Shown here piece by piece: positions 11,967-31,662 of a DNA stretch of 32,000 nt. This stretch comes from Desulfobulbus propionicus DSM 2032 (GTDB lineage: Bacteria; Desulfobacterota; Desulfobulbia; Desulfobulbales; Desulfobulbaceae). The first letter of the stretch is position 1. Every line of letters starts with the position of its first letter. Position numbers and translations under genes: made by a program. Under the pieces are notes generated by a model. That model saw nothing but the letters and a program-made list of their open reading frames with translations, was not told the origin of the DNA and made no database searches. The stretch spans positions 1,290,001 through 1,322,000 of the forward strand of contig NC_014972.1 in NCBI RefSeq assembly GCF_000186885.1, in the 5' to 3' direction.

Positions 11967-12413
11967 TCAGACGAATTTGAGATTGGCCGTCACCCAGTGG
12001 GCCGCATTGGCGTAGACCTCGTTGTCCGCGCCGATGACCACGTAGTCGGGATGGCGCACCTCGATCTCGCCCTCGCGGGTCGCCAGCACCGCCACCACGC
12101 CCGGAGGCACCTGTACCAGCCGGCTGCGCGCCTTCTTGCGGTAGCGGCCGGGCGAGGCTTCTTCGTAGGTGGCGGCCAGGACCGTTTTCTTGATCGGGTA
12201 TTCCTCGCCCGAATCCTGGATGACCACCATATCCTCTCCCGCTGTCCCGGTCAAGGTTCCCCAGGAGGTGACAAAGGTCTCGACGCCCCTGGGCTCGCGG
12301 ATGGCCACGGTGGTGGTGCGGACCGCCTCGCGCGGCGGGCCCCACGCGGCCGGGATGTGACCGCCGTGGGCGATTGTCAGACGAACGGGCGCTGATGCGC
12401 TGCCGGTTGTCAT
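11967..12413 (-). CDS. Hypothetical small protein, possibly PGDYG-like
   Basis: 148 aa with SD GGAGGA. An internal duplication of a T.EG....GD.vvi....E.Y pattern (AGEDMVVIQDSGEEYPI / RHPDYVVIGADNEVYAN) is reminiscent of PGDYG-domain proteins. It starts 24 nt after the ATPase-TPR stop. Confidence 0.45.
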   Translation of the reverse strand: MTTGSASAPVRLTIAHGGHIPAAWGPPREAVRTTTVAIREPRGVETFVTSWGTLTGTAGEDMVVIQDSGEEYPIKKTVLAATYEEASPGRYRKKARSRLVQVPPGVVAVLATREGEIEVRHPDYVVIGADNEVYANAAHWVTANLKFV

Positions 12414-12437: not shown

Positions 12438-14585
12438 CTATTTGACCAAGCCCTTGGTCAGTTCCTGGCTCAAGTTGATTACGGTGTCCATGTCGCCCAT
12501 TTCCTTGGCGGTTTGCATCAGCTGGCTCATGGCCAGAAGGGTGTCCGGATGTTTTTCGCCCAGCACCCGGCGGCGGGTTGCCAGCACCTGTTCCTGAAAG
12601 GGCCGAGCCCCCTCCAGATCGCCCTGATCATGGAGCATGGCGGCGAGATTGTTCAACGACAAGAGGGTCTCCGGGTGGTCCTGGCCCAAAAGACGGGCAC
12701 GAATCTCCAGGACCTTTTCCTCCAGGGTCCGTGCTCCGCTCAGGTTCCCTTGGTTCAGCAAGGTGCTGGCCAGGTTGTTCATGGCGGTCAGGGTATCCGC
12801 GTGCTCCTCGCCAAGAAGGCGTCGGCGCGTGTCCAGAACCTTTTCCTGCAGGGCCTGCGCACCCTTCAGATCGCCCTGCAGGTGCAGAGTGGTGGCGAGA
12901 TTGTTCATGGAAGTGAGGGTCTCCGGGTGCTCCTCGCCGAGGATGCGGCGGCACATCGCCAATTCCTGTTCCTGCAGGGTCCGGGCGCTTTCCAGATCGC
13001 CCTGACTGCTGAGGGTGAGGGCAAGGTTGTTCATGGCCGTGAGTGTCTCCGGGTGCTCCTCCCCCAGAACGCGCCGGCGGGTTGCCAAGACCTTTTCCTG
13101 CAGGGCGCGGGCCGCTTGCAACTCGCCGTTCCTCCATAACGCTTCGCCCACATCCTCTTCCGCGGCCAGAACGGCCGGAGCATCTTCCCCAAGGACCGGC
13201 CGCATGCGGTGCAGACCATGTTGCAGGGCATGCAGGGCCAATCCGTAGTCCCCGGCCCGCAGACAGATCCTGCCCGCGTCCACCAGCACATCCGCCACCT
13301 GCATCGGGTCGAGATCCTCGGCGCCCATCGCCCTGTCGATGGCCGCGCTCAGCAGCTTGGACACCATTTCCCGCTGGCGGGGATAGGCAGCCTGCGCCAC
13401 CTCGAGAATGGCCCGAGCCACCGGCTCGAACAGGTCGGGCGGCGGTTTGCGTTCCATCAGGCTGTAGGCGATGCGCAAGGCGGTGTCCAGATCGCCCGCC
13501 GCTATCCTGTCCTTGGCCTCATCGCCCAACCGCTCGATTTCCCGCTCGATCCGGACCAGGGCCAGGGATTCCCAGGGCGCCTGCAGTTCGGTGAGATACT
13601 CGGCAAAGGCGGCGTAGCTGCTGCGCAAGGACAGACGGGAATCGGTTTCTTCCAGCATGACCGCGATCGGTTCGCCAAAGGCGTAGTCCGGGATGTGCTG
13701 GAGCATGACCGTGTCGAAATATTCCTTGAGCCGGGTTGCCTTGCGCGCGAAGACTTCGTCGAACAACTGCTCGAACAGCGGCTGATAGCCGAGAAGATCG
13801 GCGGGCAGCCCCTTGGCCTCGCCGCCGCCCATTCGCCATGCCTCCATCAGGGCGGGACGCGCCATTTCGATCCGCGAGGGCAGGGGAAAGACAGTCAGCG
13901 GCCGTCCGTCCGGCGAGGATTTGCGGTAGGCGAGGGCCTTGCGGGTCAGCTCGTCGATACCGGTCAGGCTCTGCTGGTTGGGGGTGAACACCACCACCAG
14001 CTTGTCGGGCAGGAGCATGGTGCAGATGCCGCTGGTATCCGAGATACCGGTGCGCGAATCGACCAGCACGTAATCGTAGTGTTGACGCAGGTAATCGGCC
14101 AAGCCGGCGAACAGGCCGATGGTTTCCCGGAACAGCCGGTCCCACTGGAATTCGCTCACCCGCCGGCCATAGTCCGCATCGAAGCGGCCGGCCTTCATGA
14201 TCCGCAGGCCGGAAACCACGGTGGGCAGCAGGTAGCTGTCGAAATCCAGGTCTTCGAGCATCTGGCGGGCGTGGCCACGGTTGGCGACGAAGTCGCTGGG
14301 GTGAAATTCCCGGCGCTGGCCATCGAACAAGGTGAACAGATCCAGGCAGCCGGGCGCGGTCTCGAACCGGTCCTCGGCCGATGCCTCCAGGTAGGGGCGG
14401 AAATAACGGTGCAGGCCGGGGGCCTCGAAGTCCCAGTCCAGGGCCAGCACCCGTGGCGGTCGCGCGACTTCAGAGGGTGGCGCGCTGCCCAGCAGGCAGC
14501 CGATATTGGCCAGGGCCATGGTCCGGCCGGTGCCGCCCTTGTAGGAGTAGAAGGTGATGATTTGTCCGCTTTGCAAGGAGTTCAT
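12438..14585 (-). CDS. ParA/MinD-like ATPase with a KGGxGR variant P-loop, fused to a C-terminal TPR array
   Basis: N-terminus IITFYSYKGGTGRTMALANIG is a deviant Walker A with Arg in place of the P-loop Lys. Walker B is YDYVLVDSRTGISD. The C-terminus carries six 42-aa kinesin-light-chain-type TPR units (LGEEHPETLTAMNNLALTLSSQGDLESARTLQEQ...). The SD GAGGTG overlaps the TIR stop. Confidence 0.85.
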   Translation of the reverse strand: MNSLQSGQIITFYSYKGGTGRTMALANIGCLLGSAPPSEVARPPRVLALDWDFEAPGLHRYFRPYLEASAEDRFETAPGCLDLFTLFDGQRREFHPSDFVANRGHARQMLEDLDFDSYLLPTVVSGLRIMKAGRFDADYGRRVSEFQWDRLFRETIGLFAGLADYLRQHYDYVLVDSRTGISDTSGICTMLLPDKLVVVFTPNQQSLTGIDELTRKALAYRKSSPDGRPLTVFPLPSRIEMARPALMEAWRMGGGEAKGLPADLLGYQPLFEQLFDEVFARKATRLKEYFDTVMLQHIPDYAFGEPIAVMLEETDSRLSLRSSYAAFAEYLTELQAPWESLALVRIEREIERLGDEAKDRIAAGDLDTALRIAYSLMERKPPPDLFEPVARAILEVAQAAYPRQREMVSKLLSAAIDRAMGAEDLDPMQVADVLVDAGRICLRAGDYGLALHALQHGLHRMRPVLGEDAPAVLAAEEDVGEALWRNGELQAARALQEKVLATRRRVLGEEHPETLTAMNNLALTLSSQGDLESARTLQEQELAMCRRILGEEHPETLTSMNNLATTLHLQGDLKGAQALQEKVLDTRRRLLGEEHADTLTAMNNLASTLLNQGNLSGARTLEEKVLEIRARLLGQDHPETLLSLNNLAAMLHDQGDLEGARPFQEQVLATRRRVLGEKHPDTLLAMSQLMQTAKEMGDMDTVINLSQELTKGLVK
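12441..13196 (-). repeat. Six tandem 126-bp coding repeats (42-aa TPR units) inside the ATPase-TPR gene
   Basis: DNA blocks of the type gttgttcatggc(g/c)gt(c/g)ag(g/t)gt(a/c)tcc(g/c)(c/g)gtgctcctc(g/c)cc recur every 126 bp. In protein they read LGEEHPETLT(A/S)MNNLA.TL..QG(D/N)L..A..L(Q/E)E(K/Q)(V/E)L...RR(V/I/L). Confidence 0.8.
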
Positions 14586-14594
14586 CGGTGCACC

Positions 14595-15224
14595 TCAATG
14601 GCCGGGCATGGCGAATGCCTTGATGGGAGAAATGCCTTCCAGCCAGGGCCTGATCGCCTCCAGGTCGGGAAATTTGAAGGATTTGCAGGGCTCGGCCTGG
14701 ATCAGGCCGGCGTTGGTGAGGGCGCGGTACCGGTCGGAAATCTGTTTGGACAGGGCGTACAATTCCTGGTGGCACTCCCGGCGCTTGAAATCGCGTTCAT
14801 GGATCAGATGTTCGAAATTGAGGTAGTGGCGGCAGGTCTTTATTTCCTCGGGCAGGTCGTCGGCCCCCCGGTAGACGACCGGGAAGATCAGGCCCTTGTT
14901 CTGCAGGTCAGCCACGCCCGCGCCGAGGCGCTGCTTTTCCAGTTCGAGCATGGCCTTGTACTCCCTGGCGCAGTACGGATGGTTGATGTCGAAATGCAGG
15001 GGCAGGAAAAACATGACCATGCAGGCGCTGCGACACAGTTCAAAGGCCAGCTCCTCGTTGAACTGGTCGCCGACCTTGAGGCCCTTCTCGTCAAAATAGA
15101 CCGGGGCGTTGGGCAGCCACAGCTGCAGCTGGCGTTTCAATTCGTGGACAAAGGCCTGCACGAATTGCTGCGAGTCGGCCCCGGTGTGCCGGTAGCTGAT
15201 GAAACAGGCGTTGATGGAGTCCAT
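14595..15224 (-). CDS. TIR domain protein (209 aa)
   Basis: ATG 15224 with SD GGAGGA; the track's 372-aa extension overlaps the upstream gene and is Arg/Pro-rich nonsense. It has ACFISYRH (the TIR beta-A FISY motif), ACMVMFFLP, and HPYCAREY in the position of the WCxxE catalytic-Glu motif (E88). Confidence 0.8.
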   Translation of the reverse strand: MDSINACFISYRHTGADSQQFVQAFVHELKRQLQLWLPNAPVYFDEKGLKVGDQFNEELAFELCRSACMVMFFLPLHFDINHPYCAREYKAMLELEKQRLGAGVADLQNKGLIFPVVYRGADDLPEEIKTCRHYLNFEHLIHERDFKRRECHQELYALSKQISDRYRALTNAGLIQAEPCKSFKFPDLEAIRPWLEGISPIKAFAMPGH

Positions 15225-15262
15225 GGTGTCGTGCGTCCTCCGATACGGTTGGTGGGGGCCGG

Positions 15263-18200
15263 TCACGCCGGGGGGGCCGCCGGGTCGCTCGCCATCCCCT
15301 CGGCCAGTCGCTGGAGGGAGGAGCGGATGACCGCGTGGGGTTCTTCTTGCGGCAGCAGGGCAATGAGGAAGCGCAACTGGTTGGCGGTCGAATCCTGTTC
15401 GCGGCCGCTGCCCAGCCGCGTGAACAGGCCGTGATACAGGCCGATCAGGCGCTGGAGCTCGCCGTCCGCGGTCAGGGCCTGGTGCGTGCGGCCATCCAGG
15501 CAGGCCCACAGGCCATTGACCCGTTCCGCTTCCACCTCGGCCAGGGCGTGAAAGAATTGGCGGTTCTCGGCAAAGCGGCTGCGGCCGTTGTCGGCGGCGG
15601 CCGCGAGCAGGCCGGGCAGTTGCGGCAAGAGCTGATCGAAGCGTTCTCGCCGGCCCCGGACGGCGAGAACAAAAGCCGCGTCCAGGGCATTGAGCAGCGG
15701 GTAGTAATCCCAACTGCCGGTGCGCCGGTAGCTCAGCTCGGCCGCCTGCCAGTATTCGCTTTCCAGGTTGCTCAGCCAGGTGTCGGCTTCCGTGATGTTG
15801 CCCTGGGCCACGCCGGCCTGGGTCAGCCGCTTCCAGTACGAGCCGAGCAGCGACCGCCGCTCCACCGTTTCGCCGAGGGCCAGGAGCTGTTGCAGCCGCC
15901 GCCGGCCGGCCTTCATCAGGGCGGTGCCCCGGGCACGCAGCTCGGCGGTCTGCTTGTCGTCCTTGCCCGTGCCTTCCAGGAGGGTGGCCCCGTGGCGGAT
16001 CTCCAGGTTGGCCAGCTGTTCCACCGCGTGCAGGCTGAAGGCCGCATCCTCGAAGCCGAGGGCGGCGCGGTAGTGTTCGATGGCCCGTTCCCGGTCGCCC
16101 AGCTCGGCCCAGGCCGCGGCCAGCTGTTCCCGTACCCCGGCGTGGTGGACATCGGCGCCGCGCGCCGCCTTTTCGATCTGCTTAAGCTGTTTCGTGTAGA
16201 AGTTCGTGCGTTCGGCCGGGGTGACGTCCTTGAGACGGGCGCCGAGCATCTCCAGATCGGCGATCAGATGGCTGGGGTGGACGTATTGGGCGGGTTTTTG
16301 GTCGTCGTCGTTGTCCGCCACCGGGAAGCGGTAACGTTCGTCGCCGTAGGCCTGGAACGCGCCCCAGGTATTGGTCTGCGGGTGGTCGCGATGGGTGGCG
16401 GCGCGGGCCTGGAGCAGGGCCTGGCCAAATCGGCTCCCCTTGAACATGGCCTCGTAGAAGGTGCGGGCAAAGGTGGCCGCGGCCAGGTCGTCCACGGCCC
16501 AACCGGCGGCGATCACCGCCTTGCAGCCCATCTGGATGAACTCGGTGGCCAGGTTGGCGGCCAGCTCGCCCCAAGGTTGCTCGGCATCGCCCTTCATGCT
16601 CCCCAGATGACAGCAGTTGATGAACACGAATTCCGGCACCCGTCGCAGCTTGCTCACCTGGGCGGAGGTGAGAAAGGTGTCCGGGCCGAGCACCATGCCG
16701 GTGCAGCCGGTTTTCTTGTCCCGGACCACGCCGTGCCCGGCCAGGTGAATGAATCGGTAATGGCCGTTGAACAGGCCGTCGAACACATCCTGGGCCGGGG
16801 GTTTGTCCAGCCTCCTGACCCGGTATTCGGCGCGGGTGAAAAATTCGGCCACGGTGCGGCCTTCAGACTGGGCGCCGGGCAGATCCAGCATGCCGGATTC
16901 GGTATCGCCGACGATGAAGGCCTGCTTGTCCTGCACCACCGGCACCCGACCGCGTCCATGGGGTGTGGCCAATTGGCGCACCAGCTCGATCCGCGCGGTC
17001 AGCGGCGCCTCGCCGGCCTGGTCGGTGTCGCGCATCAACTCCCAGGGGTAGGCGGCGGCCTTGGCGTCCACCGACAGCATCAGGGTGCGCAGATCGGCCA
17101 CCGCCTCCTTCATGCCGTTGGGCACCAGCAGCTCGAACAGGGCGCGCGACAGGCCGGGTTGGTCCAGGGTCCGGCCGGTGGCGGTGCGGATCAGGCCGTC
17201 CACCGCCTGGCGCTGGTCGGGCTCGATGCTGACCTCGTTGCGCGCCCGGTCGGTGACCACGGTAAAGCGCAGCCGGCCCTTGTCGGCGACGATATGCACC
17301 CGGTACATGCCCTGCTGGCCGCCGCTGGCCTCGCAGCGGCCGCGATAGCCGCCCTGGCCGTCGCGCAGGCGGCCGTCGAACCGGACCACCTCGGCAAAGC
17401 GGCTCTCGCCGACCAGCTCGCTCAGGGCCTGAACCGTGGCTATGGCCCTGCCTTCGACCTCCTCGAACAGGGCCAGACTGCCGATTCGGGTCTTCATCCC
17501 GGATTGCTGCAACAGCCGGTTGGCCCGGCGCAGGGCTTCGACCAGGCAGCGCGCTCCGGATTCGAGGGGCAGGCCGGCAAAGCCGGTGCCCACCAGCAGG
17601 GAAGAAACCGCCAGCCGCTTGGGTTGCGACGGATCGGCTTCGCATTGTTGTTCCATGATCCGGGCATACTCGAGCAGTCCCTGGGTCAGGGCCTGGGTGA
17701 GGGTGCCGGGCAGCAGCTCGCCAATGGGACCCAGGCCGACGACGATGGCTCCGGCCGGTTTGGCGCCCGCCTCGGTCTGGCGGAAGACCATGGCGTCGCC
17801 GGGCTGGCACGGGTAGCGGCCGATGGCCCGGGCTCGTTCCATGCGGCCTTCGAGATGGTCGCTGAGGAACTTGGCGCTGCCGCGCAGCGGATCGCCGGCA
17901 TAGGCGCCGATCAGCACCGGGGCCTCGGCGCTGGCCAGACTGCCGTGGATGACCTCGATCACCACCGGGGCCTCGCCCTTGTGCCGGCTGCGGCGTCCCG
18001 GCCGGGCCCCGCCGGTGGCGGCGGCCAGCACCTCGTCGGCGCTGGGGTACAGGCCGTTGCCCGTAAGGCCACGCGCCTGGTAGACCACGGCGGTCTCGCC
18101 GCGCGCACCGACCCCGCTGCGGGCCAGCAGACGGGTGGTGCCGTGGTCGAGCAGTTCCCGGTAGGCGGTGAAGGCGTCCTCATGGGCGGCCAGATCGCCA

Positions 18201-20632
18201 TGAACGGCGTCCGCGTACCACACCGGCACTCCGGCAGGAAGACCGGTCTTCCACGGCACCCGGCCATCGCCCTCGCCGGTCCAGCCGATCTCCATCCGGC
18301 CACGTTCGCAGCGCACGGCGATCGGTGTCGGTGCCTGGCCGGCCACGTACAGGCAACACTCCGGATCGAGCCGGGTCTTGCTCAGCTCGGCGACCACGGC
18401 GCGTGCCGCGGCCAGTGCTCCGTCCTGCGGCGGTATCCACGACCGCTCCTTTTTTTCGTCCTGGTCCTGGTCGTAGAATGTCTTCCAGGTCTGCGGGCTG
18501 AAATAGTCAAGCCCGTCAATGGCCGCGCCGTTCTCGCCCGGCCAGGGCAGCATCTCCAGCACGCCGGGGAAATCGCGGACAATGGCGAGAAACTCGCGCA
18601 TGTTGTGCTTCCAATCCACCCACCGTTCGATGGTCTGGACAAAATCGTCCCGCCCGAGCAGCACTGCGGCAATGGAATGCGATCCGGCGTTGGGCGTGCC
18701 CAGTTGCAGCAGGCGGCTGCCGGGCAGGGCCTTGAAGGCCGACCAACGGCTGGCGAGCGCGAGCCGTGCCACCAGGCCGCCCATGGAGTGGGCGACGATG
18801 CGCACCGGTTTGCCGCGTTTGTGGGCCTCGCGCATGGCGGTATCCAGTTCGTCGCCGAAGCGGACGGCCGCCGTGCTGATCGACCGGCGCCAGTCGTAGG
18901 CAAAGGGCCGGACCTCGTGGGTTTCGGCCAGGAAGCGGGCCAGTTTTTCGTAGCAGCGGTCCAGCCAGCCGTCCGGGGTGACGTCCGGATGGTCGATGCG
19001 CAAGGTGTCCATGCCGCCGGCGCAAAGGCTGATCGGATCGAACCAGATGCGGTTGCGGCCGACCTGGAGATGGCTGCCCATGATACCGGGCACGAGCAGG
19101 ACAATCGGCGCCTTGTCGCGGCGCTTGATCTCGACGCCGCCGCGGCTGATGACGGCCTGCGACGGGCCGTCGAGCCGTTCAAACTCGCTGTCCTTCCCTT
19201 GAAGGGCGTCGAGCAGGGCATCGGCGCTCTCGTCGCGGCGGAAATAGCTGAGGTGATGGACCTCGGAGCCGGTGAACCGTTTTTGTTTGATCCCCTGGGT
19301 GCGGAAGGCGCCGCCGCTCATCGACGGCGTGTTGACCACCAGGTCGGTCTGGCCGCCGTAAAACACCTCGGACAGGCAGTCGCCCAGCCAGGGCAGCAGA
19401 CCGTCGCCCTGGAAATCGCCGGCCAGCACATGCAGGGGCGAATCGACGCGCACATCGGCGTCATTGAGCAGACCCACCAGCGGCGAGTCGGGCATCATCG
19501 CCTCCAGGCCGGGGAGGATGCGGGCATCGGTGCGCTCCTTGACCACGGCGAGCAGAAAATTCTGCAACAGGTCAAAGCCCTTGGCCACCGGTTCGAGCAG
19601 GGGCAGGGCCTTGGCGCCGACTGCAAAGCCCTTGCCCATGAGGTTGGTCATGACGCTCGCCCAGCGGTCGAGCTTGCCCGAGGCGAGCGTGGTGCCGCGC
19701 GCCGGGCAGGCGACGCGCACGAACCGTTCCACCCGGATGGCGCGCCGCCGCAGCTCCTGATTGAGCTCGCGCAGCCGGTCGGCGTCGGCCTCGAAGCCCT
19801 CGCGGCCCGTCTTTTCCCCTTGTTCGCGGAAACGGTGGATCTCGCTTTCGGTGAAGGGGTCGCGGTCGGTCCGGTTGGCCCGGGTCAGGAGTTCGCCCAC
19901 CATGCCGCCGCGCGAATGGCTGACCAGGTGCAATCGTGCGTTTTCGGGCAGGGCTTTGATCAGGTCGAGCGCATTGGCGATCGGGCTGTCGGTGAGGGTG
20001 CGGTGTTCGAAGGCAAAGATGCGGCTTCCATAGAGCGTGACCAGTTGCCGCAGGCGGCCGCCATGTTCCCACAGGCCGCCGAAGCTGCCTTCGGTGGACG
20101 AGGCGGTGCCGTGGAGAAAGAGCAGGACCGGTTCGCCCGAGGCGGGCATCTTGTCCACCCGGTGCAGGTCGAAGCGGTCGGTGGCGCAGCGATACAGGCC
20201 GTTGCGATGATCCAGCCGGGCATCCTGAAAGCTGCCGGCGGCGATCAGGGCGGTCATGCCCGCCGGGCCCCGGCGGAAGATGCGCAAGCCCTTGAGCACC
20301 CAGGCGCCGATACCCTCGCGCGACAAGCCTTCCGGCAGACGCGGGCCGGTGAGGCGCAGGGCCTGGCCGACGCTGATCTCGCCCGCCGTGCCCTCGCCCC
20401 GCCCCAACGGTGTGCCAAGATAGCGCTCCATATCGCCGGCCGCCACCAGCAGACGCATGCCGTTGGCCAGCTCCAATTCGACGACATCGTCGGCTTCCAG
20501 GGGCCGTGGCGTGGCGATGGCCTCGGCACCCCGCGCCGCCCCGTCAAGGCGGTAGGTTTCGGCCTCCCATCCGGCGATGTGTTCCTCTTGAACCGCTGAA
20601 CCTTCAATCTTGAGAGTGATGGTGTCGCTCAT
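15263..20632 (-). CDS. 1789-aa multidomain protein: N-terminal region, alpha/beta-hydrolase 1, LCAT/PGAP1-like alpha/beta-hydrolase 2, unknown middle domain, CHAT caspase-fold protease, C-terminal helical (TPR-like) region
   Basis: SD AGGAGG before ATG 20632. Hydrolase 1 (aa ~165-320): VLLFLHGTASSTEGSF...LHLVSHSRGGMVGELL, with S240 in an SHSRG elbow. Hydrolase 2 (aa ~505-700): PIVLLVPGIMGSHL...FAYDWRRS...VRIVAHSMGGLVARLA, with S616. CHAT (aa ~1160-1435): AYPWELM...YRFIHLAGHGV...EFVFINCCHLGS, a His1300 / Cys1340-1341 dyad. The tail (aa ~1450-1789) is helical. Confidence 0.85.
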   Translation of the reverse strand: MSDTITLKIEGSAVQEEHIAGWEAETYRLDGAARGAEAIATPRPLEADDVVELELANGMRLLVAAGDMERYLGTPLGRGEGTAGEISVGQALRLTGPRLPEGLSREGIGAWVLKGLRIFRRGPAGMTALIAAGSFQDARLDHRNGLYRCATDRFDLHRVDKMPASGEPVLLFLHGTASSTEGSFGGLWEHGGRLRQLVTLYGSRIFAFEHRTLTDSPIANALDLIKALPENARLHLVSHSRGGMVGELLTRANRTDRDPFTESEIHRFREQGEKTGREGFEADADRLRELNQELRRRAIRVERFVRVACPARGTTLASGKLDRWASVMTNLMGKGFAVGAKALPLLEPVAKGFDLLQNFLLAVVKERTDARILPGLEAMMPDSPLVGLLNDADVRVDSPLHVLAGDFQGDGLLPWLGDCLSEVFYGGQTDLVVNTPSMSGGAFRTQGIKQKRFTGSEVHHLSYFRRDESADALLDALQGKDSEFERLDGPSQAVISRGGVEIKRRDKAPIVLLVPGIMGSHLQVGRNRIWFDPISLCAGGMDTLRIDHPDVTPDGWLDRCYEKLARFLAETHEVRPFAYDWRRSISTAAVRFGDELDTAMREAHKRGKPVRIVAHSMGGLVARLALASRWSAFKALPGSRLLQLGTPNAGSHSIAAVLLGRDDFVQTIERWVDWKHNMREFLAIVRDFPGVLEMLPWPGENGAAIDGLDYFSPQTWKTFYDQDQDEKKERSWIPPQDGALAAARAVVAELSKTRLDPECCLYVAGQAPTPIAVRCERGRMEIGWTGEGDGRVPWKTGLPAGVPVWYADAVHGDLAAHEDAFTAYRELLDHGTTRLLARSGVGARGETAVVYQARGLTGNGLYPSADEVLAAATGGARPGRRSRHKGEAPVVIEVIHGSLASAEAPVLIGAYAGDPLRGSAKFLSDHLEGRMERARAIGRYPCQPGDAMVFRQTEAGAKPAGAIVVGLGPIGELLPGTLTQALTQGLLEYARIMEQQCEADPSQPKRLAVSSLLVGTGFAGLPLESGARCLVEALRRANRLLQQSGMKTRIGSLALFEEVEGRAIATVQALSELVGESRFAEVVRFDGRLRDGQGGYRGRCEASGGQQGMYRVHIVADKGRLRFTVVTDRARNEVSIEPDQRQAVDGLIRTATGRTLDQPGLSRALFELLVPNGMKEAVADLRTLMLSVDAKAAAYPWELMRDTDQAGEAPLTARIELVRQLATPHGRGRVPVVQDKQAFIVGDTESGMLDLPGAQSEGRTVAEFFTRAEYRVRRLDKPPAQDVFDGLFNGHYRFIHLAGHGVVRDKKTGCTGMVLGPDTFLTSAQVSKLRRVPEFVFINCCHLGSMKGDAEQPWGELAANLATEFIQMGCKAVIAAGWAVDDLAAATFARTFYEAMFKGSRFGQALLQARAATHRDHPQTNTWGAFQAYGDERYRFPVADNDDDQKPAQYVHPSHLIADLEMLGARLKDVTPAERTNFYTKQLKQIEKAARGADVHHAGVREQLAAAWAELGDRERAIEHYRAALGFEDAAFSLHAVEQLANLEIRHGATLLEGTGKDDKQTAELRARGTALMKAGRRRLQQLLALGETVERRSLLGSYWKRLTQAGVAQGNITEADTWLSNLESEYWQAAELSYRRTGSWDYYPLLNALDAAFVLAVRGRRERFDQLLPQLPGLLAAAADNGRSRFAENRQFFHALAEVEAERVNGLWACLDGRTHQALTADGELQRLIGLYHGLFTRLGSGREQDSTANQLRFLIALLPQEEPHAVIRSSLQRLAEGMASDPAAPPA

Positions 20633-20745: not shown

Positions 20746-22092
20746 TCAATACCGCACCGTCGCCATCACCATCCCGGCGGTCCAGTTCTCGTCGTCGCCA
20801 AAACGCTGCTTGGCGCCGTCGTCGGGCAGGGCGTAGGCGCCGACCAGGGAGAGGGTCAGGTGCGGGGTGGCCGTCCAATCGACAATCAGGTTCCACTCGT
20901 CCACATAGTCGTCGCTAGTCACGCCCATGGCCTGGGCATCGTGGAGGCTGAAGGCGTAGTGGATCAGGTTGACCGTCAGCGGTTCGGCTGGCTGCAGCTT
21001 GAGGCGCAGCATGTGCGAGTCGAGGTTCTCGTTGAACAGGTCGTACTCGCCGGTGATCTCGCCCTGGAACCAGGAACCCCAGTCCACGGCGCTGTAAAAG
21101 AGGACGTCGTAGTCTTCGTCGAAACTGGCGTAGCGGTAGGTCAGCTCCGGCTTCCAGGGCAGTTGCGCGAACTGGTAGCTGACCGAGGCGTACCAGCCGC
21201 TGCCGTCGTCCATGCCGTCCTCCCGGTCTTCGCGGACAAATTCGGCAGCGAATGTGAGCGGCTGCAGGGCGGCCGGCCCCTGGCCCAACTCGAACGGTTT
21301 GACGCTGCCGCGCAGATCAAAGAGGTGCATGCCGTCGCGGGAGGGGACGTCGGATTCGAGGGCGGCCATCGTGCCGCCGAGGGTGGCGGTCGGGGTGAAG
21401 GCGTATTCCACCGTGGCGCCGCCGGCACTGGTGTTGTAGGGAAAGAGGCTGTTGTTTTCGAAATAGAACAGATCGCCGGACCAGGGGCCGATTTTTATCC
21501 GGGCGATGGCCGCGTAATCGGCGCTTCGGCGGCCGCCGAGGTAGTAGGCGGCACGGCGGAAGCCTGCCCCGCCCTCGCTGCCGAACAGGAAGGCGGTGCC
21601 GGTGGTGTAGATCTGACGGCCAAAGGAGAGATCGAGGAAGTCGGTGCCCAGGGAAGAAAAGAGCGTGCCCGACCGCCAGCCGAGATAGGCCTTGTCGATC
21701 CCCAGCCAGCTGACATCGCCCAACTCGGCGTTGGTGAAGCTGGCATCGATGCCGCCGAAGGTGTTGGCCTGGACCACGTCGATCCGGCCGTAGATGGACT
21801 GGCTGTTGGCCAGGACAACCTGCCCTTCCAGGCCGGGACGGATCAACGATTCCGACCAGGAATCGATATCGGTGCCGAATTTCGCCCTGTCCGCGCCGTA
21901 CCAGGCGTTGTCCTGGCTGAAGTAGGCGTAGTCCACGCCCAGAGTGGCCTGGAGGTAGCTGCCGCGCGTGTCTTGGTAAAAGCGGAGCGGATTGGTGTCG
22001 CCCTCGCCGGCAAGCGGCGCTGCCGGCCAGGCGAGCGCGGCGAGCAAGGCGGCGAGGGCGGTGGTTCGTGGGGGAATGTGGTCCTGGTCCAT
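20746..22092 (-). CDS. Outer-membrane beta-barrel protein (porin / alginate-export-like)
   Basis: ATG 22092 gives the signal-peptide-like MDQDHIPPRTTALAALLAALAWPAAPLAGEG. Alternating aromatic/Gly-rich strands occur throughout, and the C-terminus ...GMVMATVRY ends in an aromatic residue as in OMP beta-signals. Confidence 0.6.
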   Translation of the reverse strand: MDQDHIPPRTTALAALLAALAWPAAPLAGEGDTNPLRFYQDTRGSYLQATLGVDYAYFSQDNAWYGADRAKFGTDIDSWSESLIRPGLEGQVVLANSQSIYGRIDVVQANTFGGIDASFTNAELGDVSWLGIDKAYLGWRSGTLFSSLGTDFLDLSFGRQIYTTGTAFLFGSEGGAGFRRAAYYLGGRRSADYAAIARIKIGPWSGDLFYFENNSLFPYNTSAGGATVEYAFTPTATLGGTMAALESDVPSRDGMHLFDLRGSVKPFELGQGPAALQPLTFAAEFVREDREDGMDDGSGWYASVSYQFAQLPWKPELTYRYASFDEDYDVLFYSAVDWGSWFQGEITGEYDLFNENLDSHMLRLKLQPAEPLTVNLIHYAFSLHDAQAMGVTSDDYVDEWNLIVDWTATPHLTLSLVGAYALPDDGAKQRFGDDENWTAGMVMATVRY

Positions 22093-23218: not shown

Positions 23219-25681
23219 TCAGGGACCTTCCCGATGCTGCAGATGGGCCAACACCAGGTTGATTTCGCCGTAGGTGTAGTCGTCGCCCAGGGCCTCCTTC
23301 ACGGCCTTGAGCGAGCCGGCCTGCACGGTGGCGAGCCGCTCTTCGAGCTCGCGCAGCCGTTCCTTGGGCAACAGGCCGTCGATGGCGAGCTCGCCCGCCT
23401 TGATGAAGTAGGCCAGGTGGCCCTCGACGGTCTGGGTGGTCAGGCCGCGCTGGGCGGCGATCTCGGCGATGGAGAGGCCATCCCGCAGCATTTCCAGGCT
23501 GGTCTTCTTGGTGTCTTCCCGTTTGCCCGCCTTTTTCCGCTCGCCGGTGGGACCGATGCTGTGGGGAAGGGGCAGGGTGACGCTGTCGATGCGGTGCTCG
23601 CTGCGATACGCGTTCACCAGGGCCACGATCTCGGCACCGTATTTCTCGGCCAGCTTGGCGCCGACGCCCTTGATCGTTCGCAGTGCCTTGAGGCTGTCGG
23701 GCAGGTGGACCGCGATCTGGATGAGGGTCTTCTGGTGCAGCACCTGAAACGGGGCAATATTGGCCGCCTTGGCCCGCTCGGCGCGCCAGTGCCGCAGTTG
23801 GCGGAACAGCTCCGGGTGGCCGACATCGGCCTCGGTGTAGATCGAGGTGGATTTGTCCGGACGCTGGTCCGCCTCCAGGAGCGCGGCCGACAGGGCGCGG
23901 AGGTAACGGCCCGGGGAAAAATCCTCGCCGCAGGCGACGATGGCCGCCAGCTTGGCCGCGCACTCCTGCCGGAGCTGTTTGATCACCTCATTGATCCGCT
24001 TGCGCACCTCCTTGTTGTCCGATTCCACCTCCAGTCCGTCGACGCAGGGTTTGAGCACGGTATCGAACTGCTCGCGGAAATAGCCCGCCGCCTTGGCCAG
24101 CCGTTCGCGGATGACCGGGTCCCTGGCGGGTTCCTTGTCCGCCTGAAACAGGGTGCGCAGCTGGCGGCGGAAGTTGTCGCCCACGGTGCAGATCGCTTCC
24201 TGGGTCGTGCGCTGCACGTCGAACAGATCGGCCCCGGCCGTTATCGTCACGATGCTCGCGTTGCCGCGCACCAGCCCCACCAGCCGGCCGAGCAGCCGGG
24301 CCAGGGTTTGGAAATCGTAGCACTGGTCGAGCAGCTGCTGCTGATAGCGGATCTTGGCCGTTTGCAGGGTGGCCTCGGTGGGGGCCTGGCTTTCGATGGC
24401 GGCGACGAAATCGAGCACCGCCGGATCGGTGCGGATGGCGTTGGCGACAATCGGCGAACTCAGCACCAGCCCCTCGAAGGTGCGGCAGCGGCTCAGGGCC
24501 ACATAGACCTGGCCGTGGGCAAAGGCGTCCTGGGCGTCGATCACCGCCCGGTCAAAGGTCAGGCCCTGGCTCTTGTGGATGGTGATGGCCCAGGCCGGCT
24601 TGAGCGGCACCTGGTTGAAGCTGCCCACCACCTTGGGCGAGATCTCGGCGGTGTCGGCATCGACCCGGTATTCAATGTTCTCCCAGGTGACCGGCTTGAC
24701 CTCGATGGTCTCGGGCTCGCCCGGACAGTCGACCCGGATGGTGTCGCGGCCGAGATGGGCGATGGTGCCGATCTTGCCGTTGAAATAGCGTTTTTCTGGT
24801 GAGGTGTCGTTGCGCACGAACATCACCTGCGCCCCCACCTTCAGCTCCAGACTGGCGGCGGTGGGGAAGGCGTATTCGGGAAAGCTGCCCTCGACCCCGG
24901 CCTCAAAGCAACGGCTGGAACCGGGCAGGGCGTCGAGCCTCTTGTGGTTGATGGCGTCGGCGCTGTTGTTGTGGGTGCACAGGGTGATGACCCCCTCGGC
25001 CTCCTGCGGGGAGAAATCGGGCCGAAAGCGGCTGTTGAGCGTCGCCAGGCTGGCCGCGTCGAGGCGGTTGTCGCGCACCCGATTGAGCAGGTCGATGAAG
25101 CGGCCATCCGACTGGCGGTAGATGTGTTTAAGTTCGATCGGGATCAGTTCAAGCCGCGAGAGCGCCCGGCTGCTGAAGAAGTAGGGCGAGGCGTACTGGC
25201 CGGCGAGCAGCTGCCATTCGTCCTCCTTGACCACCGGCGGCAACTGATGCAGGTCGCCGATCATCAGCAGCTGCACGCCGCCAAAGGGCAGCTCGGAGCG
25301 GCGGTAGCGGCGCAATACCGTATCGACCCCGTCGAGCAGATCGGCCCGCACCATGCTGATTTCGTCGATCACCAGCAGATCGAGGCTGTTGATGATGTTG
25401 CGTTTTTCCCGGCTGACCCGGTGCCGGCCGCCGTGCAGCTCGGTGCCGGGGAGAAAGGGGCCAAAGGGTAGCTGGAAAAAGGAGTGGAGGGTAACGCCGC
25501 CGGCATTGATCGCCGCCACCCCGGTGGGCGCGGTCACCACCAGCCGCTTGTGGGTCTGCTGTTTGATCTGGTGGAGGAAGGTGGTCTTGCCGGTGCCCGC
25601 CTTGCCGGTGAGAAACAGGCAGCAGTTGGTGTGCTCGACAAAGGCGTGCGCCAGGTGCAGTTCGGGGTTGGGAGGGCTCAT
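23219..25681 (-). CDS. Pif1/RecD-like superfamily-1 DNA helicase with C-terminal HRDC and HTH regions
   Basis: Walker A is LFLTGKAGTGKTTFL, followed by VVTAPTGVAAINAGGVTLHSFF and the DEISMV Walker B. An HRDC-like segment (LFRQLRHWRAERAKAANIAPFQVLHQKTLIQIA...IKGVGAKLAEKYG) is present. The C-terminus is LSIAEIAAQRGLTTQTVEGHL. Confidence 0.85.
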   Translation of the reverse strand: MSPPNPELHLAHAFVEHTNCCLFLTGKAGTGKTTFLHQIKQQTHKRLVVTAPTGVAAINAGGVTLHSFFQLPFGPFLPGTELHGGRHRVSREKRNIINSLDLLVIDEISMVRADLLDGVDTVLRRYRRSELPFGGVQLLMIGDLHQLPPVVKEDEWQLLAGQYASPYFFSSRALSRLELIPIELKHIYRQSDGRFIDLLNRVRDNRLDAASLATLNSRFRPDFSPQEAEGVITLCTHNNSADAINHKRLDALPGSSRCFEAGVEGSFPEYAFPTAASLELKVGAQVMFVRNDTSPEKRYFNGKIGTIAHLGRDTIRVDCPGEPETIEVKPVTWENIEYRVDADTAEISPKVVGSFNQVPLKPAWAITIHKSQGLTFDRAVIDAQDAFAHGQVYVALSRCRTFEGLVLSSPIVANAIRTDPAVLDFVAAIESQAPTEATLQTAKIRYQQQLLDQCYDFQTLARLLGRLVGLVRGNASIVTITAGADLFDVQRTTQEAICTVGDNFRRQLRTLFQADKEPARDPVIRERLAKAAGYFREQFDTVLKPCVDGLEVESDNKEVRKRINEVIKQLRQECAAKLAAIVACGEDFSPGRYLRALSAALLEADQRPDKSTSIYTEADVGHPELFRQLRHWRAERAKAANIAPFQVLHQKTLIQIAVHLPDSLKALRTIKGVGAKLAEKYGAEIVALVNAYRSEHRIDSVTLPLPHSIGPTGERKKAGKREDTKKTSLEMLRDGLSIAEIAAQRGLTTQTVEGHLAYFIKAGELAIDGLLPKERLRELEERLATVQAGSLKAVKEALGDDYTYGEINLVLAHLQHREGP

Positions 25682-25756: not shown

Positions 25757-26173
25757 TCATTCAGGTTTGCGGCGCAGGGCCTTGGTGCGCGCATGACGCG
25801 TTTTGCTTTCCAGCCGCCGCTTGCGCGCCGCCAAGGTGGGCTTGGTGGGCCGCCGTTTTTTGCGGGTGGCGCCCGCGGCACGGATCAGTTCGAGCAACCG
25901 TTCCACGGCGGCCTCCCGGTTCTTCTCCAGGCTGCGAAACTCCTGGGCCTTGATCACCAGCACCCCGTCCTCGGTGAGGCGCTGGTCGTGCAGGGCGAGC
26001 AAGCGGGCCTTGATCGTTTCCGGCAGCGACGAGGCGCGGATATCGAAACGGAGATGCACGGCGTTGCTCACCTTGTTGACGTTCTGTCCGCCCGAGCCCT
26101 GGGCACGGATGGCGGTCAGCTCGATCTCGGCGGCGTCGATGCTCAGGGTGGGGGTGATGGGGATGGTCGGCAT
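25757..26173 (-). CDS. arfB: Alternative ribosome-rescue factor ArfB (peptidyl-tRNA hydrolase, YaeJ family)
   Basis: 138 aa with the GGQ motif (RAQGSGGQNVNKVSNAVHLRFD) and a basic C-terminal tail (RKKRRPTKPTLAARKRRLESKTRHARTKALRRKPE). Confidence 0.9.
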   Translation of the reverse strand: MPTIPITPTLSIDAAEIELTAIRAQGSGGQNVNKVSNAVHLRFDIRASSLPETIKARLLALHDQRLTEDGVLVIKAQEFRSLEKNREAAVERLLELIRAAGATRKKRRPTKPTLAARKRRLESKTRHARTKALRRKPE

Positions 26174-26261
26174 GGGTGTCTCAACAAATGTGAACTGGAA
26201 CCAGTAGGGAGCCGGTGAGCTGAATCGAATATTGCTGGTCGCGATTGGTACAACAATGCCG

Positions 26262-26294
26262 CAAAAAACAAAAGGGGCTTTTGCAAGCCCCTTT
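26262..26294 (-). terminator. Rho-independent terminator after the cytochrome gene
   Basis: The minus strand reads AAAGGGGCTT-GCAA-AAGCCCCTTT followed by TGTTTTTTG, about 20 nt after the stop at 26313. Confidence 0.65.
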
Positions 26295-26312
26295 CCTTGA
26301 TTTCCGATCTGT

Positions 26313-28220
26313 TTATTTCAGGCTGTTCGGGTCATGACAGGAGATCCCGCAGGAGTTCGTGTACGGGATGGGCATGGCCTTGTCCGGGTCCACGCCCTTC
26401 ACATACTTGTTGTCCTTGCGGGGGACGATGAGCAGGTGGGAAGTGATGTCGTTTTCCCAATAGTTCTTGCCATCGGCCGTCACCAGTCCTTTGCCGAAGC
26501 CTGCTCCGGTTTGGGCCGTCTTGAACTGATGGCAGTTGGTGCAGGTGATCTTGGTTTCCGGTCCGTGCGCCATGCCCACGGCGTTCTCGGTATGCTTGGC
26601 CATATCCTTCTGCGCGGTATGGCAGCTCTGACAGTAGGTGCTTCCCGGCGTGACCGCATCCTGGCGCATCTGATGCTTGAACGCTGACCCGCCATGAGGA
26701 TCGTGACAGGTGGTGCAGCTTAGGATCTGCTCAGCGTTGCGGTATTTTGTCGAACGGATAAAGTCGAGATACTGCTGATGATGCGACTTGGAATGGGATT
26801 CCCACACATCCTTGGGCGAGGCATCCTCACGGGTGGTGAAGTTGACCAGATACTCGTTCCGACTGATGCCCGGAGCCATCATCTTGTTGTCCTTGTTGAC
26901 CGGCTGGTCATTGTTGAGGAAACCCTGGGGCCGAGAATGGCATTGGCCGCAGATGACCGAGGCCCTTTCTGAAGCCAGTTTACCGGGACTGACAATGGTG
27001 GCAGCTTTTTTCGCGGCCGGTGCCTTGACGTGGGCCGATCCGGCACCGTGACAGGACTCGCAGCCGATGTTCAGTTCGTTGGGCACGCCGTCGCCGTCGA
27101 TGTCTGCCTCGCCGTTCGGATCATTGACCGCGCCGGCGATGTACTCCCCAGAATCCAGTTTGGTGAGACTGTATCCGGTATAGTGGCAGGAGGCGCATTC
27201 CTTTTCAAAGGACTTGGCGATAGGAGGGTCGGTGAGTTTCTTGGTTTCCTCGTTGAAGAACCAGTCCGCATGGTAGTCCCTGAACTGCTTCCGCGTCCGG
27301 TTACCGTACTCATCCTTGCCGTGCTCGTTGTACTGCAGGAACGGATAGAGGCTCTTGCCAACGTGCAGGAGATAACGCTGTTTATAGAGACCTCCGCCGT
27401 AGGTCAGTTCCACCGGATACTCCCGAGGGGGATCGGATGGATCCTTCAGATTCTGCATCTTGATCTTGACGTGTCCCTTGTCGTCGGCGGAGAAGGTGGC
27501 GCTCAGGCTGGCGGTAGTGGGATCTTTCGGCATTTCTCGGGCGACCTTGTACTTGTCGAATCCGCGTTCCTTGTCAAAATCAAAGAAATAGAAGGTTGCT
27601 CCAGCCTTGAGAATGTTGAGACCGTTGTCGATTTCAACAAACCGCGAAGAATCCTGGAGTTTGCTGTCCTTGCCGGCAACTCGGATGCCTAGTTTATGGA
27701 GGGTCATCTTTTCGGTGGCATAATCCTTGTGGCAGTTGAGGCAACTGGTCGTGCCCACGAAGGTGGCACCTGCGGGGGTATTGCCCGAAAGAAGAATTTC
27801 GACCGGCTTCCCCTTCAACGCTTTAGGGGAGATGGCGACATCAGCCTTGTTGCCACCGGGCAGATAGGTCGCATCCGCCGGGACGACGTAAAGGAAGTAT
27901 TTTGCCTCGGCGACGTCGGCAATCTTGAATTTGCCCTGCTTGTCGGAGACTCCTTTTTTGTAGGTATCTTTGTTGGCCGCTAGATTGTCCTCCAGCGGTT
28001 CATCATTAGCGGCATTTTTTTTGACCTCCAGCGGGGTTTTCGCCATTGCCGCCACGTCTGTGGCTGGAATCAGATAGACGGTAGCCTTGGGCACGACGTG
28101 TTTCGATGCATCCTTGACAACGCCGCTTATGGTGGTGCCGGCCATCAGTGGCCTGCCCGCCAGGAGCAACACTCCCAAGCTCATGACAAAATACGACACG
28201 ATTCTGTACCAATGTTTCAT
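26313..28220 (-). CDS. Multiheme c-type cytochrome (seven CXXCH plus one CX3CH) with signal peptide and N-terminal CarboxypepD_reg-like domain
   Basis: ATG 28220 with SD GGAGG gives MKHWYRIVSYFVMSLGVLLLAGRPLMAG. Heme motifs are CLNCH, CASCH, CESCH, CGQCH, CTTCH, CQSCH, CTNCH and CGISCH. The track's longer 728-aa version starts in the leader and was rejected. Confidence 0.85.
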   Translation of the reverse strand: MKHWYRIVSYFVMSLGVLLLAGRPLMAGTTISGVVKDASKHVVPKATVYLIPATDVAAMAKTPLEVKKNAANDEPLEDNLAANKDTYKKGVSDKQGKFKIADVAEAKYFLYVVPADATYLPGGNKADVAISPKALKGKPVEILLSGNTPAGATFVGTTSCLNCHKDYATEKMTLHKLGIRVAGKDSKLQDSSRFVEIDNGLNILKAGATFYFFDFDKERGFDKYKVAREMPKDPTTASLSATFSADDKGHVKIKMQNLKDPSDPPREYPVELTYGGGLYKQRYLLHVGKSLYPFLQYNEHGKDEYGNRTRKQFRDYHADWFFNEETKKLTDPPIAKSFEKECASCHYTGYSLTKLDSGEYIAGAVNDPNGEADIDGDGVPNELNIGCESCHGAGSAHVKAPAAKKAATIVSPGKLASERASVICGQCHSRPQGFLNNDQPVNKDNKMMAPGISRNEYLVNFTTREDASPKDVWESHSKSHHQQYLDFIRSTKYRNAEQILSCTTCHDPHGGSAFKHQMRQDAVTPGSTYCQSCHTAQKDMAKHTENAVGMAHGPETKITCTNCHQFKTAQTGAGFGKGLVTADGKNYWENDITSHLLIVPRKDNKYVKGVDPDKAMPIPYTNSCGISCHDPNSLK

Positions 28221-28471
28221 CTGGGCACCTCCTGCAAGAAGGGATGGGGCGAACCACAAACAAATCGAACCGTCAGCGCGGCCTTTGTTCATGGGGGGGT
28301 GCAGCGTGGAGGAAAGGTCAGTGGGAAAAAATGGATGAGGGGATGGACTCTCCCGCCGTGTGTCACGGTCGGTGCATAAGGGGGAATTGCAGAGCGCGTT
28401 CACGGACCGGGAGAGAGTATTCACGTGCAGCCCCCCTTTGTTTACCTTTTGGATGCTCAAACAATAAGGCA

Positions 28472-28499
28472 AAATTACAAATGATCGTATCGAAGTCAA
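28472..28499 (-). promoter_or_regulatory. Possible sigma-70 promoter for the cytochrome gene
   Basis: The minus strand reads TTGACT-16 nt-TAATTT in the only AT-rich patch of the 520-bp divergent intergenic region. This implies a leader of roughly 250-270 nt. Confidence 0.3.
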
Positions 28500-28741
28500 T
28501 CTATTTTTTTATGGAAATTTCGAAAGATACCTTGACATCAAGCCATCTTGTGTTCTCTTGAAACCAGACGGGTGGCGCAGCGAATCCGACCAGGAAAAAG
28601 AGGGGAGGGCAAGGCCCTTGTTGCGTATCACCACAAAGGGGGAAAGCAATGTGGGCCATCGGGCATTGCCGGGTCAGCATGTGACATCTTGAAGCCGATC
28701 ACTGCGGCGAAGACAGAGAACCATACAGAAAGGATCGAATC

Positions 28742-29530: not shown

Positions 29531-29588
29531 TTGTTTCCACGCTGGCGCACGGGAACAATCGTCCGTTGCCGCCCAGCGGCAAGGTCCG

Positions 29589-29693: not shown

Positions 29694-29775
29694 GGTCGTT
29701 TGTGGTCAGGAGAAGCGTGGGGGATACGGACTGATCAAAAATCGACAATAACACGGATCAGCCCACCCGAGCCCG

Positions 29776-31661: not shown

Positions 31662-31662
31662 C

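Follow-up and report, generated by a model that had tools for sequence, protein, structure and literature searches.

The gene cluster described here lies in a stretch of 32,000 nucleotides (nt) of the Desulfobulbus propionicus DSM 2032 genome (NCBI RefSeq assembly GCF_000186885.1, contig NC_014972.1, positions 1,290,001 to 1,322,000 of the forward strand). The whole stretch is called the window, and coordinates are counted from its first letter. Three genes on the minus strand encode a 1789-amino-acid (aa) protein with two serine-hydrolase domains and a CHAT protease (the giant), a 209-aa TIR protein, and a 715-aa ATPase of the ParA/MinD type with tetratricopeptide repeats (TPRs). We propose, with a probability of about one half, that the locus is a Thoeris-like abortive-infection pathway that uses TIR signalling and is built of two modules, with the ATPase as an added tier. 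Module 1 consists of the TIR protein and the ATPase, module 2 of the giant and a neighbouring C14 caspase. This reading is favoured because the TIR-ATPase pair occurs repeatedly with a rare domain, the sensor TPR (TPR-S), in two unrelated effector contexts.

The TIR protein and its ATPase partner

For comparison, approximately 35 related loci from genomes and metagenomes were collected with the TIR gene as anchor, together with contigs encoding homologs; individual loci are referred to by L numbers. The 209-aa protein matched Pfam TIR_2 above the gathering score (E 4.8e-9), and the TIR glutamate, E88 in the motif PYCAxEY, was invariant among the orthologs. These are 57-85% identical, and remoter relatives 37-53%. 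A phmmer search of the PDB with the window TIR gave no match at E<=1. In each of the 25 loci that had an intact TIR gene and sequence downstream of it, the following gene encoded an ATPase with the KGGVGR motif. The spacing of the two genes ranged from a 4-nt overlap to approximately 60 nt and was typically 6-20 nt. Their adjacency spans Proteobacteria, Acidobacteriota, Caldithrix and Armatimonadota, and it holds even at 37% TIR identity. Because adjacency was found in 25/25 loci, the TIR protein and the KGGVGR ATPase are an obligate pair. Outside this count stands the decay product L030 (10-213), in which residue 67 is the last of the TIR and unrelated sequence follows. In the wider family the TIR domain can also be fused to the ATPase, as seen in approximately 35 proteins among the 120 best word-based matches and in 6 of 58 sampled representatives.

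The 209-aa TIR protein is predicted to be a signal synthase. The initial annotation had counted four effector modules at this locus, the TIR domain among them; this was probably a miscount, since a role of the TIR protein as signal generator is more likely than one as effector.

Fold and domain partners of the ATPase

The ATPase domain scored 119 bits with NCBIfam NF047398 (KGGVGR-motif variant AAA ATPase; curated cutoff 90), so that the family is already a named one. In an alignment of 60 sequences, residues K16, G17, G18, T19, G20 and R21 were invariant, as were D50 and D52 of switch I. The same was true of S177, R178 and G180 in the Walker B/switch II motif DSRTG, and D176 was nearly invariant. 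KGGxGR was present in 114 of 115 ATPase representatives and KGGxGK in none. An AlphaFold2 (AF2) model of the ATPase reached a predicted local distance difference test score (pLDDT) of 90.5. The nearest solved structures found with Foldseek were ParA, P1 ParA, Soj, MinD, FlhG and McdA, and a single-sequence search of the PDB gave marginal MinD matches only. Because the structural neighbours of the model are ParA, MinD and Soj, the ATPase is, by its predicted fold and as annotated initially, a derived ParA/MinD protein of the SIMIBI class and not a STAND protein; a STAND reading was rejected on fold.

In a HMMER scan of 1.84 billion representatives, 1,788 clusters (50% identity) were obtained at E<=1e-30. 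The KGGVGR domain was always N-terminal, in host proteins of 447-1584 aa. Among 58 sampled relatives, the modules C-terminal to it included TPR (19), nSTAND1 (9), TIR (6) and WD40 (4). As it precedes a true STAND domain, nSTAND1, in 9/58, the KGGVGR domain may be an adaptor or an effector-side module rather than the switch. The six TPRs of the window ATPase are predicted to form a sensor array. In orthologs the repeats number from 6 to approximately 12 and the proteins measure 715-980 aa (window, L009:10643-13585, L010:872-3676, L019:2931-5837), and this variation fits a rapidly evolving sensor surface.

Predicted-inactive MinD/ParA-like modules, coupled to kinases, AP-ATPases and TPRs, have been described in conflict systems in passages of Kaur et al. 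(2020, PMC7159879), and they appear to be the same domain class as the KGGVGR ATPase. The papers searched did not contain the term 'KGGVGR', any report linking MinD/ParA-like ATPases to TIR anti-phage defence, or any experimental work on the family.

Effector genes beside the TIR-ATPase pair

Among the close-clade loci (TIR at least 57% identical) whose surroundings could be assessed, a TPR-S protein adjoined the TIR-ATPase pair in 12 of 16. These TPR-S proteins are of two kinds. Four loci have a giant-type partner. Besides the window these are L019, in which the gene order is identical, L005, which lies at a contig end, and L034, where a divergent giant is again linked to a TIR protein (77% identity) and an ATPase (73%). 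The other eight (L001, L002, L009, L011, L012, L022, L023 and L031), which include Bradyrhizobium and several metagenome-assembled genomes, have a partner resembling ThsI, the effector of type VIII Thoeris. The ThsI-like proteins, approximately 440 aa long, scored 63-95 bits for TPR-S, a clear match, and with their N-terminal domain matched DNPH1 in a profile search. TPR-S is the sole element that the two partner architectures have in common. Such swapping of effectors around a shared TPR-S is a signature of signalling systems, as expected if TPR-S reads the product of the TIR enzyme.

In the giant-type cassettes (window, L005, L008 and L019) the ATPase gene is in every case followed by an ORF (open reading frame) of 148 aa (60-77% identity), which in the window begins 24 nt past the ATPase stop codon and has a GGAGG site. 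This ORF is absent from the ThsI-type loci and is probably the fourth gene of the giant-type cassette; its product had no match in Pfam, NCBIfam or PADLOC. In L008, only 115 aa from the last TPRs of the ATPase persist downstream of the giant gene (3507-3893), together with the 148-aa gene. These two show that the TIR-ATPase-148 cassette was once present in the L008 lineage, and they are evidence for its deletion.

The ThsI-type loci have a small gene of their own: directly upstream of the ThsI-like gene there is always one for a protein of 170-194 aa with a CGGACGGD motif (L001:7239-7823, L002:7313-7825, L011, L012, L022), which matched no family and could be a further effector or signal-processing component. 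NCBIfam contained nothing for the ThsI-like, 148-aa and 194-aa proteins or for a 452-aa protein of L034 (see below). A profile of the ThsI-like proteins (L001:7848-9173, L002:7838-9175, L009:13800-15100), besides DNPH1, matched the N-terminal regulatory region of ASK1/MAP3K5 (8qgy, E 3.6e-10) and Pfam MAP3K_TRAF_bd with up to 140 bits. This sequence similarity hints that the N-terminus of human ASK1 may be descended from a ThsI-like bacterial effector architecture.

Integrases, ThsB-type TIRs, NB-ARC, nSTAND1 and AbiEii proteins and a Schlafen-like helicase are encoded near related loci, and the interpretation as a conflict system fits these defence-island contexts. In L001 (Bradyrhizobium CP182470, 1..22187) the TIR-ATPase pair lies in an integrase-flanked island with at least eight TIR-domain genes around it (ThsB_TIR, TIR-NB-ARC, CAP12-PCTIR_TIR); patatin, two TPR-S proteins and QueC/Ogg-like genes are also present.

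Domain composition of the giant protein

From the N-terminus the giant consists of a region of no assigned family, a DUF7379 hydrolase, an LCAT/PGAP1-like lipase, a predicted Macro-fold domain, a CHAT protease and a TPR-S region (Table 1). The CHAT motifs GHG and NCCHLG are kept in giant homologs. The TPR-S profile (PF20308) matched the last 340 residues with 24.4 bits (E 4.5e-5; gathering score 27.6), and PF20308 was precomputed for 12 of 14 homologs of the C-terminal region. When the C-terminus was aligned to the ThsI-like proteins with hhalign, a probability of 64% and an E value of 6.6e-5 were obtained, with the aligned core ER..LLGSYWKR...YYPL.NAL.

An AF2 model of residues 886-1202 was confident only at residues ~890-1075, where pLDDT was about 62-89. 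In a Foldseek search of the PDB this part matched the macro domains of TTHA0132, macroH2A, YmdB and PARP14 and the macro-like N-domain of LAP (E ~3e-7; template modelling score, TMt, 0.6-0.74). It also matched Pfam Peptidase_M17_N weakly (E 0.022). The modelled Macro-fold domain is a candidate binder of an ADP-ribose derivative. The L034 giant is 32% identical to that of the window from end to end over 1,766 columns; it retains THSRGG, AHSMGG, the CHAT histidine, NCCHLG, the motifs of the Macro region and the TPR-S core.

The giant and the neighbouring caspase

A neighbour of the giant is a C14 orthocaspase of 263 aa; its His/Cys dyad (SGHG/DSCHSG) is intact, and its best PDB match was 3bij (E 3e-33). 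L034 excepted, the caspase gene adjoins the giant gene in all five loci with known flanks. It lies upstream in the window, L003, L004 and L007, and downstream, in inverted order, in L006. By analogy with a CHAT-caspase pair discussed below, the CHAT protease may have the C14 caspase as a substrate.

The initial annotation had treated the giant, TIR and ATPase genes as one unit. This stands for the TIR-ATPase pair, which is fixed, but not for the whole: giant and caspase were found without TIR or ATPase in four loci (L003, L004, L006 and L007), and the pair was found with other effectors or with none. Remnants of the TIR and ATPase genes were sought in the giant-only loci; none was found in the four just named, and only L008 has one. 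Relatives that are ~80% nucleotide-identical differ in having the TIR-ATPase-148 cassette. Frameshifted genes were seen in L003, L004, L007 and L008. On some of these contigs neighbouring genes are fragmented too, namely that of a PIF1 helicase in L004 and that of the caspase in L007, so assembly error is the probable cause and a reading as pseudogenes was set aside.

Gene calls and surroundings

The features of the locus are collected in Table 1. The coordinates of the three ORFs were confirmed exactly as first annotated, including the gaps of 38 nt between giant and TIR genes and 9 nt between TIR and ATPase genes; neither gap contains a terminator-like site. The earlier domain calls (two serine hydrolases, CHAT, TIR, ATPase, six TPRs) were upheld by Pfam and NCBIfam, and the residues singled out then (S240, S616, H1300, C1340/C1341, TIR E88 and ATPase R21) all lie where they had been placed. 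The inventory was nevertheless incomplete, as it lacked the Macro-fold and TPR-S regions, the 148-aa gene and the C14 caspase. A GGAGG-type Shine-Dalgarno sequence had been ascribed to each gene; the giant (AGGAGG) and TIR (GGAGG) genes have one, whereas the ATPase gene has only a weaker GAGGT.

Table 1. Genes of the locus and domains of their products
Feature	Coordinates	Strand	Evidence
Giant effector gene, 1789 aa	15263..20632	-	ORF call; Pfam
DUF7379 alpha/beta-hydrolase, aa ~165-480, elbow SHSRG (S240)	19193..20140	-	Pfam PF24096 E 3.4e-36
LCAT/PGAP1-like lipase domain, aa ~505-735, AHSMG (S616)	18428..19120	-	Pfam LCAT E 6.7e-7, PGAP1 E 4.1e-7, Abhydrolase_1/6
Predicted Macro-fold domain, aa ~890-1075	17408..17965	-	AF2 model and Foldseek
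CHAT caspase-fold protease, aa 1162-1431, H1300 (GHG), C1340-C1341 (NCCHLG)	16340..17149	-	Pfam PF12770 E 2.8e-30
TPR-S (sensor TPR) region, aa ~1500-1780	15293..16135	-	Pfam PF20308, sub-threshold
TIR gene, 209 aa counted from ATG	14595..15224	-	ORF call; TIR_2
ATPase-TPR gene, 715 aa	12438..14585	-	ORF call; NCBIfam, Pfam
KGGVGR-motif ParA/MinD-like ATPase domain, aa 1-340	13566..14585	-	NCBIfam NF047398
Six 42-aa TPR_10/TPR_12 repeats, aa ~428-715	12441..13304	-	Pfam TPR_10 E 1.9e-69, TPR_12 E 2e-68
148-aa gene, probably fourth of the giant-type cassette	11967..12413	-	Position conserved in relatives
C14 orthocaspase gene, 263 aa	22220..23011	-	Peptidase_C14 E 7.6e-29
Outer-membrane beta-barrel-like gene, between caspase and giant genes	20746..22092	-	Signal peptide, C-terminal ...TVRY

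The G+C content of third codon positions (0.81-0.85 in the three ORFs) favours the minus strand as coding. A 1754-aa antisense ORF (15335..20599, plus strand) is almost certainly an artefact of high G+C content, as this measure and all domain hits favour the minus strand. An independent gene caller gave identical products of 1789, 209, 715 and 148 aa on contigs of four unrelated sequencing runs (SRA); thus the genes are intact and recurrent.

The 476-aa product of the beta-barrel-like gene had no match in Pfam or PADLOC. It was rejected as a component of the system, being barrel-like, present in L007 (58% identity) and absent from L003, L004 and L006. Upstream of the caspase gene, a helicase of the PIF1 type that also has HRDC and HTH_40 domains is encoded (23219..25681, minus strand); it is syntenic in L004 and L007 and matched the PADLOC models PDC-S68, PDC-M16A, DpdF and RecD-like weakly. 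The wider neighbourhood in the window is housekeeping (transporters, MeaB, cytochrome), with no large defence island. Over positions 26000..32000 the G+C content falls from ~0.65 to 0.51-0.58. This region contains a gene for a 728-aa multihaem cytochrome (26313..28499), has a strong bidirectional terminator hairpin at its boundary (26270..26295) and may be a horizontally acquired segment.

Discussion

From the genes, domains, catalytic motifs and neighbourhood patterns described above we infer the biochemical steps of the following mechanism. The TPR array of the ATPase would recognise a cue derived from the invader, and the ATPase would then license the TIR enzyme, plausibly through nucleotide-dependent dimerisation as in ParA/MinD. 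The licensed enzyme would convert NAD+ into a diffusible signal derived from ADP-ribose. Binding of this signal by the C-terminal TPR-S of the giant, and possibly by its Macro-fold domain too, would activate the CHAT protease together with both serine-hydrolase/lipase domains. CHAT may in turn cleave and activate the neighbouring C14 caspase, as SAVED-CHAT does with PCaspase. The predicted outcome is cell death or dormancy through proteolysis and lipolysis. Besides the recurrence of TPR-S, the invariance of the catalytic glutamate of the TIR protein and of the nucleotide-site residues of the ATPase (60 sequences) counts in favour of this scheme.

Type VIII Thoeris is among the closest known systems. 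It consists of a TIR protein, ThsB, and the effector ThsI, described as 'CMP hydrolase and TPR'; phage protection was shown, the trigger is canonical cyclic ADP-ribose (cADPR), and the TPR part is the presumed sensor (Yirmiya et al., 10.64898/2025.12.03.692087). There, as in the window, a TIR gene lies beside the gene of an effector with a presumed sensor of the TPR-S type, and orthologs of the window pair adjoin ThsI-like proteins, the ThsI architecture being present in L001, L002 and L009. The window effector differs in having DUF7379, LCAT, Macro and CHAT domains rather than a CMP hydrolase, and an ATPase-TPR gene is obligatory beside TIR genes of the window type. The ancillary genes named in that survey are only Cap2/3 and Cap9-11, together with a partner class labelled 'ATPase' in its Table S1, which is left unspecified and untested there. 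Compared with Thoeris in general, a TIR protein with its catalytic glutamate is present, but the core is not a two-gene one of TIR and effector; for an adjacent signal-binding effector the evidence consists of the TPR-S score (24.4 against 27.6 bits), the hhalign probability and the modelled Macro domain.

Module 2 recalls two other systems. In type IV Thoeris a TIR protein acts with the caspase-like ThsE through the signal N7-cADPR, and proteolysis is indiscriminate (10.1101/2024.10.24.620036). The common feature would be a TIR signal that leads to a caspase-fold protease with a C-terminal sensing domain, a likeness judged by architecture. In the window, in contrast, CHAT is embedded in a 1789-aa multi-enzyme TPR-S protein and the stand-alone C14 caspase is a second protease. 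In type III-B CRISPR, SAVED-CHAT cleaves and activates the stand-alone PCaspase (Steens et al., 10.1101/2023.06.23.546230). A CHAT gene is likewise paired with a stand-alone caspase gene in the window and in the four loci that lack module 1, but the putative sensor is TPR-S/Macro instead of SAVED, and the signal would come from TIR instead of Cas10 or a CD-NTase. Pfam gave no SAVED match on the giant, and the PADLOC model SAVED_CHAT matched over the CHAT part only (E 8e-4).

The ATPase combines features of two NTPase classes. With STAND/NLR proteins (Avs, bNACHT, NB-ARC-TPR) it shares the association of an NTPase with variable C-terminal repeats (TPR, WD40, LRR) of fast-changing number and with TIR or protease effectors. 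It differs from them by its SIMIBI ParA/MinD fold, with which dimers would be expected instead of STAND oligomers. The fold (TMt 0.65-0.72), the signature lysine K16, the DxD of switch I and the DSxxG of Walker B/switch II are those of ParA, MinD and Soj. The deviant Walker A motif KGGxGK[ST] of these proteins is not kept, however, as the P-loop lysine is replaced by arginine (R21) in 60/60 aligned sequences and 114/115 representatives. The KGGVGR ATPase also has an insertion of ~100 aa, a C-terminal helical extension and sensor repeats, and in place of a ParB/MinE-type partner it has a TIR gene. In the ternary vWA-MoxR (VMAP) systems, MinD/ParA-like modules are treated as a predicted-inactive effector-side domain, and the passages concerned (PMC7159879) say nothing of a small TIR protein as obligate partner or of TPR-S effectors linked to the modules.

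A PADLOC-DB v2 search with all components and several relatives gave no system-level match, only weak CHAT/caspase matches and a local P-loop match to PDC-M28B. The candidate PDC-M28 was rejected, as only residues 8-60 matched positions 129-174 of the 438 in the PDC-M28B profile and there was no match to the partner PDC-M28A. The locus works most like types VIII and IV Thoeris combined with a CHAT-to-caspase cascade, yet it fails membership of each, and no earlier description of the ATPase partner or the giant effector was found. The initial view that it is no named system holds in so far as PADLOC has no model for it, but the statement that it is not Thoeris was too strong, in view of the TPR-S of the giant and of relatives whose TIR-ATPase pair lies beside ThsI-like genes.

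Several observations weigh against the proposed pathway. The TPR-S match of the giant itself is under the Pfam gathering score, and the hhalign probability to the ThsI-like proteins is just 64%. The Macro-fold assignment depends on modelling from a shallow alignment (8 sequences; overall pLDDT 60). The TIR of the window falls into another cluster than the validated type VIII ThsB proteins (YTVFVSHSW..., YKIFISHSW...), and the window motifs NACFISY and NACFVSY were not found in the part of Table S1 compared (10.64898/2025.12.03.692087). The MinD/ParA-like domains of conflict systems are predicted to be catalytically inactive in the pertinent passages of Kaur et al. (2020, PMC7159879). The four loci with giant and caspase have no TIR or ATPase gene within ~10 kb. 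Conversely, 11 TIR-ATPase loci (L014-L018, L020, L021, L024, L025, L032 and L033) have no TPR-S gene nearby and sit among housekeeping or other defence genes. Because giant and caspase, and TIR and ATPase, each occur singly, either module can persist without the other. Finally, the giant of L034 is flanked by a TIR-TPR protein and a 452-aa protein and not by a caspase.

In L034, the upstream neighbour of the giant is a 932-aa TIR-TPR protein (1-810), and the 452-aa protein, which is lipoprotein-like (7321-8679), is encoded between giant and TIR-ATPase genes.

The separate occurrence of the modules bears most directly on the main alternative, two independent neighbouring defence systems within a single transcription unit. 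The ATPase-TPR protein would then detect the invader and activate TIR as an NAD+-depleting effector without a diffusible signal, and giant and caspase would form a separate system whose TPR-S/Macro part senses something else. Besides the 4 and 11 loci that have one module alone, this would agree with the ATPase-TIR fusions, which resemble self-contained sensor-effector proteins, and with the variable presence of the cassette among ~80% identical relatives, as in defence-island flux. Chance adjacency, on the other hand, leaves unexplained why 12 of 16 loci have a TPR-S neighbour, in two architectures and two divergent giant lineages, and the genes of the window are tightly spaced with no terminator-like site between them. 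We consider this explanation a serious one, though short of probable.

It is unlikely that the locus serves regulated cell death of a non-antiviral kind, or kin discrimination or development, like the systems of multicellular or aggregating bacteria described by Aravind and colleagues, and that it responds to endogenous stress signals and not to phage. CHAT, caspase, TIR, TPR and MinD/ParA-like modules are all listed for NTP-dependent conflict and apoptosis-like systems in passages of two papers (PMC7159879, PMC8195603), and the housekeeping surroundings in the window would suit such a role. The relatives, however, lie beside integrases and defence genes of several kinds, a part of TPR-S effectors in defence against phage has been validated (10.64898/2025.12.03.692087), and presence and absence change rapidly between close relatives. 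That the TIR and ATPase-TPR proteins are FxsC/FxsT-type accessories of an FxSxx-COOH peptide-maturation system (ribosomally synthesised and post-translationally modified peptides, RiPP) is hardly credible and was rejected: although MinD/ParA-like domains are mentioned beside actinobacterial peptide-processing systems in passages of Kaur et al. (2020, PMC7159879), the matches to FxsC_Nterm (36 bits) and FxSxx_TPR (185 bits) fall far below the NCBIfam cutoffs of 130 and 300 bits, the latter is confined to generic TPR repeats, and neither the window nor the related loci contain a radical-SAM or precursor-peptide gene.

The two-module TIR-signalling pathway can be extended, more tentatively, to the whole family. 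KGGVGR ATPases, which are fused to TPR, WD40, LRR, nSTAND or TIR modules, could be a widespread class of immune switch, a dimerisation-driven SIMIBI counterpart of STAND/NLR proteins. They would license a dedicated TIR enzyme, and TPR-S effectors would respond to its product, in effect a three-tier Thoeris in which an NTPase-repeat protein takes over sensing from the TIR and which here would feed a CHAT-to-caspase cascade and lipases. We regard this extension as doubtful in its full breadth.

If the proposed pathway is correct, Thoeris-type signalling would gain a dedicated ParA-like NTPase-repeat partner that controls the TIR enzyme, and the switch-plus-sensor logic of NLR-like proteins would have been built on a second, unrelated class of NTPases. 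A testable function would be available for ~1,800 clusters that are now merely called 'KGGVGR-motif variant AAA ATPase'. TPR-S would be a generic receiver that plugs into effectors as different as a CMP hydrolase and a CHAT/lipase giant. CHAT-to-caspase cascades would have a further nucleotide-signalling route leading into them, a bacterial parallel to the co-operation of TIR and caspase in animal cell death. Should the modules be independent, the obligate TIR-ATPase pair would remain a candidate defence system of two genes that has no earlier description.

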